Positions 20,808 to 60,127 of a stretch of 64,000 nt of DNA are shown here, one piece after another. The position numbers and the translations under genes are program-made. The stretch spans positions 5,518,001 through 5,582,000 of the forward strand of contig OX597828.1 in the NCBI GenBank assembly GCA_951406725.2, written 5' to 3'. The notes beneath the pieces were generated by a model that saw only the letters and a program-made list of their open reading frames with translations, had not been told where the DNA came from and did no database searches. The first letter of the stretch is position 1. Each line of letters starts with the position of its first letter. This DNA is from Octopus vulgaris. Its lineage: Eukaryota.

Positions 20808-21196
20808 TATTAGTGAATTGAAGAAATGGAGTTGAACGAAGATTGAACAGAAATCGCTTTATTGCATTCTACACGTGTTTCGAAAGGCACAATTTACCAA
20901 ATTCCGATTGAATAAGGAGACCATATTGTGTCTTTCTCTTCAGGAAGATATAGGAAATCCGTTGGAAAAAACAAAAACAGAACAGAGGCGGAGCAAAACA
21001 AATCGTTTTGCTCCGCCTCTGTTCTGTTTTTGTTTTTTCCAACGGATTTCCTATATCTTCCTGAAGAGAAAGACACAATATGGTCTCCTTATTCAATCGG
21101 AATTTGGTAAATTGTGCCTTTCGAAACACGTGTAGAATGCAATAAAGCGATTTCTGTTCAATCTTCGTTCAACTCCATTTCTTCAATTCACTAATA
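20808..21196. repeat. Perfect 389-bp palindrome (192-bp arms, 5-nt loop AAATC at 21000-21004)
   Basis: The arms are exact reverse complements as read, and the ORF track shows mirror-image ORFs on both strands. Confidence 0.97.
21058..21137 (+). ncRNA. Hammerhead ribozyme motif (mirror copy at 20867-20946 on minus)
   Basis: TTC-CTGAAGA-GAAAGACACAAT...ATTGTGCCTTTC-GAAAC-ACGT-GTA-GAA followed by AATAAA. Confidence 0.75.
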
Positions 21197-22631
21197 ATAT
21201 TATAATTCAATAATCCGCACCAACGCACGGTTGCAACACCATAGGGTTGTACCTCCAACCGTGCTGTCTTCTGCTGTGATTTTTGCTACCAAGGTATTGG
21301 TTAAACTTTTGATTAATCTGCAACAAGATTATTCATCTTTCTATTTCACAAAATATATATATATATATATATATATATATATATATATATATATATATAT
21401 ATATATATATATATATATATATATATATATATATATATATATATATATGCACTTATACACACACACGCAATGTACACATAAATAAATGTGGTGAGGAGGT
21501 GGTTTCTACCGACTTGAAAGCGTCTCGAAATTATACTCGAGAAGTATCCAGAGCAGTTATTGGTGCTCATTTCCTAAACCAGACATTTTAAAAGGAAACG
21601 TTTAAAACTTCATATAATTGTATGACGATTCACAGTCTAATTTCTAAGTAGTAGTTAAGCTAACAACCAATACTTCTTACCAATTCTTACACTGGCAGGG
21701 AAAATTATCAATGATTGTTCAATATCTATATTTGGTCTGATTTACAGTTTCATATTGAAACATAAAACATTGATATAAATCTTCCTTATTGACAAGGAGG
21801 CTGAAATAAAAGAAAAGTGAGTTCTAATATTGCTTACGTAACATGAGAGCACGAAAGATTTATTAAAATACAATATTGTTAGCATAAATAAAAAAAAAGA
21901 AAACATTCTAAGTCCGTTCTAAACACAATCACTTTGTCGAACAACTATATCCTTCGATGAATAGTCATAAAAACATGAAAGTTAAGAAGAAATGCATGAA
22001 CGCTGCTTACGTCAGAGACATTTAATATTAGTCAAGATTTCCAGTTATTATTGGTGGTTTTAGTTTTATGACTTTATCCAGAAGAATGAAATATGTAAAT
22101 GAATTTCGGAGACAATAATATCGATTCTAAAACTAAAAGGTGATTAAGATAATTTTTGTTGGCGAAACTGCATTTATTCCTAACAGCTTGCTCCGATTAT
22201 TGAAGAAATATTTTCAGCAATAAGTAAAAGCACTTAAAGTCTTTCTTCAAAACAGCTTTGACATCCTCAGAATTACTTTTATCTAATTACACTATATTCA
22301 ATACAACGCATTTGAAAAGTATATGACAATTTCCAGTCTAGAACACAAATATATTTTCCCATCTACCATTTAAACATTCCGTAATGTGGACTTGTTCAGA
22401 GTACACACCTACAGACCCCCACATTTACATACTACCTATCTATGTATGTATGTATGCATGTATGTATGTATGTATGTATGTATGTATGTATGTATGTATG
22501 TATGTATGTATCTATCTATCTATCTATCTATCTATCTATCTATCTATCTATCTATCTATCTATCTATCTATATATATATATATATATATATATATATATA
22601 TAATAATATGTTATAATTACTCAATAGTCAA

Positions 22632-22692
22632 GATAAAACTCTGAGTTTCAGATGCCGAAGTGGAAATCCACAACACCATCTCTTCGGTTATC
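22632..22692 (-). ncRNA. Hammerhead-like motif (CCGAAGA variant), same family as 15861-15921
   Basis: Segment 22617-22750 is nearly identical to 15847-15980; both lie a short distance downstream of a (TA)n tract. Confidence 0.55.
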
Positions 22693-23449
22693 TGGCCATC
22701 TGAAAAAACGCTATGAAAAAATACCGTTATATAAAGGGAAATTACTGTGTTATAATTCTGCTACTTATATAAAATAAGATTAAACTTTCATAGTAAAACA
22801 CGTAAACATGGCTAGTCATACGCTCACATGTGCGCTCGCGGACCCACGTGCGTACTTATAAGTCACTATGAAAACGTACACATCTTCACTCGCATTTTTC
22901 GCCAAATATATACTCATATATATATAACCTCATACACACACATGCGTACTGTAAAAGTTCATACATACGTCTATATACACACAAGTACAAGAAAAACCAT
23001 GGTTAAATGTAACAGAAAAAACATAAGGAGGTATACAAAACTTAAAAACCACGTTCATATACGGACATGCCCTTAAGCACTCATACACACTCACTCCCAT
23101 TTATGTACATACCCGCACATGTTTATATACGCATACATACACACGCATATACGAAGAATGAATATACATATGCACCCCCTTCCCCCCCAAAACCCTAAAA
23201 AAATGGAGAAATACTAAGTAAAAACGTCTATATATATGCATTATTATGCCCGCACACACGCACACATCTAAAACTGCCCACTCATACATATTTACACACG
23301 TGTACAAATGAATCTATATTTAACTATATATCTGTTTGAGTGTCTGTCTGTCTATACATGTGCATGTAATTATATGTATATATAAATACATGTGTGTATA
23401 TGCATATACATATATATATATATATATATATATATATATATATATATAT

Positions 23450-24396
23450 ACAAAATATTACATTATACAATTAGGGCTTAGTAAAATAAATTACTTTGCC
23501 AAAAAATAGCAGCCAAAAAGATTTTTAGCCATTTCCACTACTTTAAGAAAAATTCTCCCAGATAATGTTTACTCAAAAATAACTCACGAAGATATGGAGG
23601 TAAAACAGTAAAATATCACAAGTACAAAGATCATTTGAGAACGTCACGTTTCTAGATTAACCGAAATAAAACTCAGCATTTCCTTCGTCAGCTCAACATT
23701 TCTTAATTTTGGAATTGAAAGCACTAAAAGAATGAACATACCCGTCCGGCAATGTATCACCTCAGACAAACACCCTCAAACTGCCAGTACTAGCAAATTC
23801 AAAATGTACAAGCGAAGATTCATGTTCTTTCCTCTACCACCCACGTGAGTTATCTAGTAAACATACTATAACGGTGAGAACCGTAGTAACAGAACAGGGA
23901 GAAAGGAATTATAATATCAATAATTGAGGGTAAAATTAATTAGTTATTAATCAATTTTACCAAGTAGTGTTCAGTATGTAAAAGGACCATTTAAGGCGTA
24001 TTCAAAATATTACATTATATAATTAGGGCTTAGTAAAATAAATTACTTTGCCACATACTGAACTTTCTAGAAATAGCAGCCAAAAAGTTTTTTAGCCATT
24101 TCCACTACTTTAAGAAAATTTTTCTTAAAGTAGTGGAAATGGCTAAAAAACTTTTTGGCTGCTAGTTTTTTAGCCATTTCCACTACTTTAAGAAAATGTT
24201 TCTTAAAGTAGTGGAAATGGCTAAAAAAACTTTTTGGCTGCTATTTCTAGAAAGTTCAGTATGTGGCAAAGTAATTTATTTTACTAAGCCCTAATTATAT
24301 AATGTAATATTTTGAATACGCCTTAAATGGTCCTTTTACATACTGAACACTACTTGGTGAAATTGATTAATAACAAATTAATTTTACCCTCAATTA
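23450..24396 (-). mobile_element. (TA)n-flanked hammerhead element: one monomer of about 550 bp plus a second copy folded into a palindrome (23921-24396) with a doubled hairpin centre
   Basis: 23451 onward repeats at 24003 onward; 23921-24115 is reverse-complemented at about 24198-24396; two centres TTAAGAAAATxTTTCTTAA. Confidence 0.85.
23635..23696 (-). ncRNA. Hammerhead ribozyme motif
   Basis: TTGAG-CTGACGA-AGGAAATG...ATCTA-GAAAC-GTGAC-GTT-CTCAA; 5-bp stem I, weak stem II. Confidence 0.6.
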
Positions 24397-24459
24397 TATA
24401 TATATATATATATATATATGTATATATTCTTATGTTCTTTTTAAAGGATGCAGACATTT

Positions 24460-24850
24460 CAGTACGTGCATGCTGGAGAATCTCCCTGACGGATCTTTAG
24501 TCGAAGAAATTGACCCCATGACCCCATAACTTTTTTAAGCCTGGTAACTGTTCTTTTTGTCTATTTATGCTAAGTTGCGGAGACCTAAATGCACCAACAC
24601 CGTTTGTCGAACGGTGTTGGGGGAACAAGCACACATTGATACATACACACATGCATATATGTATATATATATATACATACATACATACATACATACATAC
24701 ATACATACATACATATATATATATACATAAGAAAGGGTTCTTTACGTCTATCGTCCGAGGCTATAGTAACGGACCCTTGCCTGAGGTACCACGAAGTGGA
24801 ACTGAAACCGGAATCATGTGACTAGGAAGCAAGCTCCTTACTACACACTC
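24460..24850 (-). mobile_element. SINE family A, degraded full copy
   Basis: Both halves are homologous to 59170-59583, with a central microsatellite. Confidence 0.7.
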
Positions 24851-58821: not shown

Positions 58822-58902
58822 CTATGGACGCGCGTTTCGGAATTAGGTTGGAATGAAGAATATAAAATTATACTTTACCAACCGTTTTCCTCTTCAGCAT
58901 AG
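58822..58902 (-). ncRNA. Canonical minimal hammerhead ribozyme
   Basis: CTATG-CTGAAGA-GGAA...TTCC-GAAAC-GCGC-GTC-CATAG. It lies in element 58640-59140, a diverged member of the 23450 family. Confidence 0.85.
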
Positions 58903-59169
58903 GACCCCATCAATAATTAAATATTGAAATATCAAATTCGAAGGTACTGGAATAATTGAACATATCTCTCCACCTAACGGTATCATACAGATAATATTCA
59001 GTGTTAGTACCGCCGAATTCAAAATATGGATGAGGTTCAATTACCCTTCCCTGCTCGTCCTCGTGTGTCTACAAGTAAACTACTACAGAAAAAAATTTGT
59101 AGCTTGTTATCAGGGAGAAATTACTGATAGCATTACTGATAATATATATATTTACTCATTTACTCTTTT

Positions 59170-59583
59170 ACTTGTTTCAGTCATTTGACTGCGGCCATGC
59201 TGGAGCACCGCCTTTTAGTCGAGCAAATCGACCCCGGGACTTATTTTTTGTAACCCCTGTACTTATTCTATCGGTCTCTTTTGCCGAACCGCTAAGTGAC
59301 GGGGACGTAAACACACCAGCACCGGTTGTCAAGCAATGCTAAGGGGACAAACACATACACACAAACATACACACACACACACACACACACATATATATAT
59401 ATATATATATACATATATACGACAGGCTTCTTTCAGTTTCCGTCTACCAAATCCACTCACAAGGCTTTGGTCAGCCCGAGGCTATAGCAGAAGACAATCG
59501 CCTAAGATGCCACGCAGTGGGACTGAACCTGGAACCATGTGGTTGGCAAGCAAGCTACTTACCACACAGCCACTCCTGCGCCT
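59170..59583 (-). mobile_element. SINE family A, full length, young
   Basis: GGCGCAGGAGTGGCTGTGTGGTAAG...GGTTCAGTCCCACTGCGTGGC head, central (TA)/(TG) tract, 3' end GACTGAAACAAGTAAAAGAGTAA. Confidence 0.9.
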
Positions 59584-59970
59584 ATATATATATATATATA
59601 TATATATATATATATATATATATATATATATATATATATATATATATATATATATATATATATATATATATATATATATATATATATATATATATATATA
59701 TATATATATATATATATATATATATATATATATATATATATATATATAATTAATATAGGATAAAAGTTTTTCGGGAAAAAATTTTTATCAATGGCCAGCA
59801 TATCAAAAAATGCCTTTAAGGTAAAATTTATACATAATTTACAAGATAAGGGCAGAAGAAAAATTCTAATACTAAATATGCCGGAACAAATTTTTTTTTT
59901 TTGTCGATAACCATTATAATTTATGCGTCTCGAAAGAAAACGATAGAAATCTCTAAAAAATTCGTTATTA

Positions 59971-60025
59971 CCGTATTGGTTCAATTTCGGGGTTAATTCA
60001 TAAGAAATTTTCCCCTCTTCAGCGG
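59971..60025 (-). ncRNA. Canonical hammerhead ribozyme motif (AUA site)
   Basis: CCG-CTGAAGA-GGGG...CCCC-GAA-ATTG AAC CAAT-A-CGG. Confidence 0.8.
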
Positions 60026-60064
60026 CAAATACGCGAGATATAAATGAAATACTTACTCATACCC

Positions 60065-60127
60065 ATGGAAAAAGCAAGCACTAAGTCCTGAGCAGTCTGC
60101 TCAGGACTTAGTGCTTGCTTTTTCCAT
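60065..60127. repeat. Perfect 63-bp palindrome with 1-nt centre
   Basis: ATGGAAAAAGCAAGCACTAAGTCCTGAGCAG-T-CTGCTCAGGACTTAGTGCTTGCTTTTTCCAT. Confidence 0.95.

Follow-up and report, generated by a model that had tools for sequence, protein, structure and literature searches.

The closest described systems are endonuclease-bearing (EN+) Penelope-like elements, which carry an inverted, 5'-truncated pLTR and a one-sided tail (PMC3846280; PMC8557442). For such palindromes self-priming was proposed in 2013 (PMC3846280), and the accessible text of the two papers invokes either self-priming or EN-mediated resolution and terms the cycle undefined, the origin of the inverted repeats being stated as unresolved in the latter (PMC8557442). 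According to the accessible part of an in vitro TPRT study, the Anolis protein PAc (Poseidon), a predicted dimer, nicks both strands and extends them, and the tail is bounded by its two RT start sites (PMC11167929).

The window (the whole 64-kb stretch of Octopus vulgaris DNA that was analysed) contains all seven palindromes claimed in the initial annotation, recovered here as inverted repeats (Table 1) and mostly adjoined by (TA)n. These palindromes are head-to-head insertions, in (TA)n, of hammerhead-bearing Penelope-like elements or of non-coding followers, and their identification as Penelope-type insertions with an inverted terminal repeat had been right. Such DNA hairpins are real and very common footprints of Penelope-like insertion, a shape that has itself been published before: counted irrespective of family, there are 9 short-spacer palindromes in the window and 19 in 390 kb (39 arbitrarily placed 10-kb stretches), or about 49 per Mb. 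Folding energies say no more than that the two arms are complementary. Hammerhead-like cores number five in the window against a shuffle mean of 0.27.

Table 1. Inverted repeats and insertion parts in the window.
Feature	Positions	Strand	Details
Inverted repeat	20808-21196		perfect 192-bp arms, 5-nt spacer
Inverted repeat	23914-24403		arm identity 98%
Inverted repeat	27499-27751		112-bp arms, 29-nt spacer
Inverted repeat	40525-40699		arm identity 85%
Inverted repeat	51963-52323		arm identity 76%
Inverted repeat	54784-54992
Inverted repeat	60065-60127
Family A mirror arm	20808-20999	-	outer end at family tail-less site, fused to (TA)n
Family A sense arm, pLTR of Penelope-like element	21005-21352	+	ends at (TA)n
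Tail of family A sense arm	21197-21352		156 nt
Type I hammerhead-like core (CTGAAGA, stem II, GAAA)	21061-21126	+	mirrored at 20878-20943, minus strand
Family B long arm	23451-24118	-	1.2 units of 568-bp tandem unit; 3' end at tail-less site
Duplicated hairpin tip	24074-24243	.	78-bp unit x2; both turns at one native AAAAATT site
Family B mirror arm	24199-24396	+	outer end at tail site, fused to (TA)n
Family B2 insertion	27400-27751	-	long arm 27400-27640 is tail end; mirror 27640-27751 is tail-less end
Family C old insertion	40320-40699	-	palindrome 40525-40699, 85%
Family D old insertion	51830-52323	-	palindrome 51963-52323, 76%
Family E, non-coding element of ~205 nt	54784-55047	+	mirror 54784-54896 to tail-less site; sense arm to tail end
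Family F insertion	59750-60127	-	unit ~461 bp; hammerhead core 59985-60022

Family A appears, as judged from its translation, to carry an ORF with RT plus a GIY-YIG-like domain. A single ORF with RT was found (908-aa open stretch in L250, RT-like motifs by eye) with 88 homologues, and its atlas neighbours have RVT_1 in 13-48% of members; a GIY-YIG-like motif was seen by eye, and an atlas cluster at 0.95 has PF01541 in 11% of members, where Pfam gave none. Family A ORFs had no direct Pfam match and no PDB match. This family also has a hammerhead in the pLTR, a 5'-truncated inverted copy and a one-sided tail. Families B, B2, E and F leave the footprint of EN+ Penelope-like elements, namely two fixed ends, head-to-head inversion, a TA-rich target and a TSD, the last readable only in family E among these four. 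B, B2 and F consist of tandem units (568, 557 and ~461 bp), each with a type I hammerhead; hammerhead-like cores lie near 23640-23700 inside the family B long arm (by eye) and near 52090-52120 in family D. The 150 of 256 Rfam matches listed included no hammerhead, only sub-threshold miRNA-like matches from hairpins and microsatellites.

With EN+ Penelope-like elements, as far as these are covered by the accessible text, the octopus families share the head-to-head inverted copy, junction palindromes, partial tandems, tail at one end, TSD, pLTR hammerhead, microsatellite targets and N/S-rich linker inserts, whereas their tails are ~55-155 nt as opposed to the published 30-40; the rule of one end of each kind, spacer ownership and the cap-like G described below were not found in that text (PMC3846280; PMC8557442). 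B, B2 and F (and D) also resemble metazoan non-LTR retrozymes in being non-coding and built of tandem units that contain a type I hammerhead core, although their units of 460-570 bp are longer than the 150-450 bp reported, and the word "inverted" is absent from that paper (PMC7229834).

The outer end of the mirror is fixed within families. Among copies sampled as the best 15-30 matches per search, which is not a random sample, all 27 inverted family A copies of the first sample had it at 1686-1698, and 19 of 23 copies in family E had it at 148-156. Copies with one end per site made up 15 of 18 in family B, 9 of 10 in B2 and 15 of 20 in F, as tiled. None of 18 family B insertions used the same end site twice, though both sites are on offer in tandem-unit families. 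Insertions usually have one tail-bearing and one tail-less end; two family E insertions have tails at both, and several short mirrors start at non-canonical sites (L062, L063, L067, L017, L024, L106 and 60065 in the window). The original picture of one arm reaching (TA)n and the other being a truncated mirror holds as regards (TA)n adjacency in most cases, but random truncation does not, the outer mirror end being family-fixed.

Tail-less solo copies abut (TA)n (L105, L111, L120), so that the tail-less site can be a 3' end alone, and some inversions have almost no arm overlap (L112, L002). The tail-less arm extends further 5' in 12 of 19 copies of family E; in L033, L036, L043, L047 and L097 it does so by 170-825 nt even though it lacks the tail; in the window, the mirror also reaches further 5' than the anchored arm at 20808, 52140, 54888 and 60096 (by ~30 nt, by eye, in family D). 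TSDs of 12-13 bp were found in L064, L081, L088 and L077. As both end sites of A, B and F are TA-rich, (TA)n pairing could also set an end; the fixed site of family E is not a long AT run.

Turn points differ among copies and, as first read, are not MITE terminal repeats; a MITE or fold-back DNA transposon was ruled out on this ground and by the tail at one end. They concentrate at what appears to be a transcription start, and 15 of 24 arms beginning there have a non-native, cap-like G (p ~1e-4 against 25%); either arm can have it, and in L042 both do. The idea that turns are fixed at the hammerhead cut was rejected, family A turns clustering ~150 nt upstream of the cut. Inserted bases occur in 42 of 90 junctions, a count that is too high for B and F owing to noisier calls at 92-97% identity to the reference, and 13 of 91 junctions are blunt; L143 (22-nt overlap) was excluded as a reference-edge artefact, and 45 loci had no simple junction call. 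The microhomology initially suspected at turn points is enriched only in insert-free junctions, where 14 of 48 overlap by at least 3 nt against a null of 6%. Native hairpins underlie some tips (L040, L061), and near-symmetric tips are found away from the start site (L117, L113, L093, L080, L170). Two insertions are chimeric (L082, L036), their arms differing in subfamily alleles; arms mostly carry alleles in common, including 13 variants absent from every other sampled family A copy.

We favour, as a rather probable explanation, a process in which each palindrome is one Penelope-type insertion, with the arms primed separately at both nicked strands and the cDNA ends joined head to head; the family-fixed outer ends suggest two separately started DNA copies and not a single folded copy. 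The element protein would nick both strands of TA-rich DNA ~12-13 nt apart, one 3' end starting at the distal RNA site (the tail end) and the other at the proximal RNA site (the tail-less end). Both cDNAs would be copied toward the RNA 5' end, usually from one RNA or from RNAs that share a source locus, so that in many pairs both arms would stop at the capped start, yielding near-perfect palindromes. The cDNA ends would be united through end-joining or a template jump, overlapping by 0-5 nt or with a short insert between them, and snap-back probably contributes a minority of short hairpins at tips. In L1 twin priming, reportedly described by Ostertag and Kazazian in 2001, a second nick primes a second cDNA and the inversion is joined by short microhomology. 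These features are alike, but the second start in L1 is said to be variable and its arms to copy different parts, whereas here a fixed start and overlapping arms lead to palindromes. A search of the accessible literature found no proposal of twin priming for Penelope elements. PAc is similar in nicking and extending both strands, in its two tail-bounding RT starts and in its AT-rich targets; the accessible part of that study draws no tie to the inverted repeat, and the octopus data are genomic footprints, not biochemistry (PMC11167929).

We count for double priming the fixed paired ends, tail-less solos, barely overlapping inversions, longer tail-less arms, cap-like G, both chimeras, short TSDs and PAc in vitro. 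Counting against it are common and private arm alleles, as self-copying would give, the enriched microhomology in insert-free junctions, native-hairpin tips, near-symmetric tips off the start site, two-tailed E insertions, non-canonical short mirrors and TA-rich end sites; also, a later tip deletion in a palindrome can lengthen either arm relatively.

Self-copying might also be combined with two primed strands: both nicks would prime at fixed sites, the longer cDNA would snap back to form the tip, and the new sense strand would anneal to the other, often short, cDNA. This hybrid, which we consider unlikely though by no means far-fetched, accounts for the fixed outer ends together with shared alleles, for spacers of at most 25 nt (13 of 29 family A and 17 of 21 family E junctions), for the microhomology enrichment and for canonical-site mirrors just 11-20 nt long (L059, L006, L122), and 11 of 50 A and E junctions show an overlap of at least 2 nt with an offset suiting one arm or the other. 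It is less easily reconciled with the blunt and insert-bearing junctions, with spacers of hundreds of nt at 0-1 nt overlap (L033, L049), with the chimeric arms, and with the cap-like G on both arms of L042.

The initial annotation had proposed that the nascent cDNA snaps back on a few complementary bases and copies itself. In the fuller form of this model weighed here, the single cDNA would be primed at the long-arm (TA)n, an endonuclease cut or TA pairing would set the mirror end, and later tip deletions would blur the geometry. Private alleles common to both arms, non-canonical short mirrors and the TA-rich tail-less sites of A and B are consistent with this, and the predicted long-arm geometry with an overlap of at least 2 nt is seen, but in only 6 of 50 clean A and E junctions. 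The mirror exceeding the anchored arm in most E copies, the tail-less solos, the barely overlapping inversions, the family E site and the lack of site reuse in B all argue against it, and among the seven palindromes in the window the geometry is clear at 27640 alone, with 1 nt of overlap. There, the TCTGAG cited as microhomology is non-native and is the mirror itself, the unfolded subfamily sequence reading antisense ...CAAAGGTATGGGG (by eye); the spacer is owned by the long arm. At 24111, snap-back on AGAA-AAA-TTCT predicts an 11-nt centre and 13 nt are seen, which is near but not exact, and 23450-23920, formerly taken for a separate unfolded member, is part of the 24119 insertion, whose long arm runs on through it as a single 673-nt sense stretch of the 568-bp tandem unit (L001). 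The spacer at 21000-21004 belongs to the family A mirror (L031: A[1696>1495], S[1501>1849], overlap 1 nt), as does that of family E to its mirror, where the junction lies at the native self-complementary AAAATATTTT with a 5-nt overlap; the family C mirror is shortened by a 205-bp copy of local DNA. The 31-bp family F mirror, with its non-canonical end site and 2-nt overlap, is a snap-back candidate. Snap-back as a general rule is improbable and is largely refuted by the fixed mirror ends, the pairing of a tail-bearing with a tail-less end, mirror-only sequence and the two chimeras; some of the short non-canonical mirrors, a minority, may nevertheless have arisen by true snap-back.

Self-priming with antisense RNA as template, put forward by Arkhipova et al. 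(2013, PMC3846280, in its accessible text) for the palindromes at head-to-head junctions in Adineta, is very improbable here, as the cap-like G at the sense start and the fixed sense 3' ends indicate a sense RNA template and PAc takes sense RNA in vitro, according to the accessible part of PMC11167929. It is scarcely credible that the palindromes are library or assembly artefacts or ordinary MITE terminal repeats, given that they have TSDs and fixed biological ends, that their arms have diverged (76-98%), that turn points vary and that contigs of two other studies (X5, X6) show family A head-to-head joints at 15 positions among the matches listed, even though the perfect 20808 junction is unbridged by the contigs listed from four runs, which break in such repeats. 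An artefact may still lie behind the duplicated hairpin tip (24074-24243) and the 205-bp copy, 100% identical, at 40700.

The genomic rules (fixed paired ends, spacer ownership, cap-like G and chimeric arms) tell the models apart and yield sharp predictions for the existing PAc in vitro system. As a tentative extension of double priming, which we would not yet call probable, Penelope-like integration may be obligate double TPRT: RT would start twice on a single capped RNA, once from each nicked strand, and the enzyme in the lead would run off at the cap and then jump to the trailing cDNA. If so, a single rule would cover the inverted pLTR, the one-sided tail and the junction palindromes, and this genome would have been seeded with long hairpins numbering on the order of 100,000. 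The hairpins are an expected by-product of a known element class, and might, hypothetically, serve as dsRNA or editing substrates.

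Palindromic insertions are real and common in the Octopus vulgaris genome, and their architecture is already known. All seven palindromes listed in the initial annotation were recovered within a few bases of their assigned positions by an exact-palindrome scan, a repeat finder and masked self-BLAST. Counting arms of at least 30 bp and spacers of at most 100 bp, 19 palindromes occur in 39 arbitrarily placed 10-kb stretches of the assembly (2.8 Gb, 227 contigs), about 49 per Mb with all families pooled, and 11 of these 19 have TA at an outer end; the window, with nine, lies above the average density of what is a genome-wide feature. 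Any dsRNA that such hairpins might yield is a hypothetical consequence. Contigs from two other studies contain head-to-head joints of family A at at least 15 positions, in several of which the mirror arm is joined directly to the tail; for the junction at 20808, no bridging contig was found among those listed for four sequencing runs. PMC3846280 reports junction palindromes and proposes self-priming, and PMC8557442 describes an inverted 5'-truncated copy, a one-sided tail and (TA)n targets, calling the cycle undefined.

Features of the window (window positions; (-), minus strand)
Position	Feature	Observation
7772-8242 (-)	candidate fragment	presumably Tc1/mariner transposase-like
15831-16064	eighth inverted structure	arms of 29 bp around a 53-nt spacer, ending at TA
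22618-22746; 58500-58598	pieces	related to 15831-16064
20808	palindrome	spacer belongs to mirror
24119	palindrome	turn within native AAAAATT; insertion includes 23450-23920
27640	palindrome	spacer belongs to long arm; native overlap 1 nt
36945-37149; 40700-40904	205-bp copies	100% identical; no third site in genome
40612	palindrome tip	age obscures junction call
41508-42273	partial tandem within SINE-like repeat	family D-related unit of 498 bp, 98.5%
41314-41469; 42495-42650	flanking SINE-like copies	mutually inverted
52140	palindrome	spacer belongs to mirror (by eye)
52538-53086	inverted repeat (92 bp, 96%)	surrounds further hammerhead-like stretch (-), read by eye
53723-54157 (-)	candidate fragment	presumably 3' end of RTE-type LINE ORF
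54888; 60096	palindromes	spacer belongs to mirror

The palindromes are head to head, as the sense direction always points toward the (TA)n of the long arm. A scan of the window for hammerhead cores gave five matches against a shuffle mean of 0.27, and families B, B2, C and D yielded additional cores, found either on visual reading or with relaxed scan settings; retrozymes are described in PMC7229834. In families B, B2 and F a non-coding unit is repeated in tandem, its length being 568, 557 and about 461 bp respectively, and family E is about 205 nt long. Several family A copies retain long open frames, with long low-complexity N/S/G-rich linkers between reverse transcriptase and putative endonuclease (L250:89-2812, L203:4000-5321) that resemble the N-rich inserts of Adineta Penelopes (PMC3846280). 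The eighth structure represents another Penelope-like family, because its sequence is preceded at locus L059 by a GIY-YIG-like ORF that carries a Cys motif. Each query yielded 748–2427 first-look candidates, of which 40 were scored and only the best 15–30 fetched, so that the samples are biased to young, long copies.

Within each family, the outer ends are fixed. In family A the mirror ends at 1686–1698 in 26/26 inverted loci of the first sample (L039 likewise, via its other arm), and the opposite arm terminates at 1845–1849. A second, tail-neutral sample of this family contained no double tails or double tail-less ends and one non-canonical mirror (L106), and three solo copies in it end at the tail-less site. 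Of 23 inverted insertions of family E, 19 have an end at 148–156, two have two tails and two are non-canonical; one end per site was found in 15/18 (B, three non-canonical), 9/10 (B2) and 15/20 (F, as tiled). The stretch 23450-23920, previously read as a separate unfolded copy, is part of a palindromic insertion. Arm pairs mostly carry the same alleles, including 13 variants absent from other sampled family A copies; at L082 and L036 the two arms derive from different allele groups. Target-site duplications of 12–13 bp are readable at 4 of 17 family E loci examined.

Junctions are mixed: among 90, 42 contain inserts, 26 overlap by 0–1 nt, eight by 2 nt and 14 by at least 3 nt, the last class being enriched among the 48 insert-free junctions relative to a 6% null. 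In the two cleanest families (A and E), 6/50 junctions with at least 2 nt of overlap have an offset that fits fold-back of the right-hand, anchored arm, and 5/50 one that fits fold-back of the mirror. The arm reaching further 5' in family E (n=19) is the tail-less arm in 12, the tail arm in five and neither in two symmetric cases. The TCTGAG microhomology cited for 27640 is the mirror's own start; at 24119, few-nt pairing with homopolymer slippage is compatible with the turn, though the match is not exact. Two different family E insertions (L063, L072) have an identical junction (2-nt overlap, offset 11), possibly a recurrent turn site. The 205-bp copy at 40700-40904 replaces the mirror end of an old (85%) palindrome; it arose either by recent templated copying from local DNA, at a hairpin/TA site, or through misassembly.

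Fixed paired ends, a longer arm on either side, tail-less solos, target-site duplications and mixed junctions are what the sequences show. The probable origin is the joining of two primed cDNAs: staggered nicks in the target would permit two separate priming events, the cDNAs would run off at the RNA cap, and their ends would be joined by template jump or end-joining. Snap-back of a cDNA followed by annealing to a second one is unlikely, if still worth weighing, and we stop at "probable" because the sequence alone fits both processes and is also compatible with later tip deletions. Snap-back of one anchored cDNA, the mechanism initially proposed, is improbable and is not the general rule, as the first three features do not bear it out. 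PMC11167929 shows nicking and extension of both strands with two reverse transcription starts; in our literature search, no paper put forward twin priming as a mechanism for Penelope-like elements.

Turn points cluster at position 1464 in family A and, in family E, at its 5' end, which would explain why many tips are symmetric. At these clusters, 15 of 24 arms with non-native upstream sequence carry G at -1, the read-through copies having C (p about 1e-4 in a post hoc test, with two E read-through copies excluded and the E native base taken from two copies). This G is present in tail arms, tail-less arms and both arms of L042. Since reverse transcriptase copies an RNA cap as C, the excess suggests that the element RNAs serving as templates are capped.
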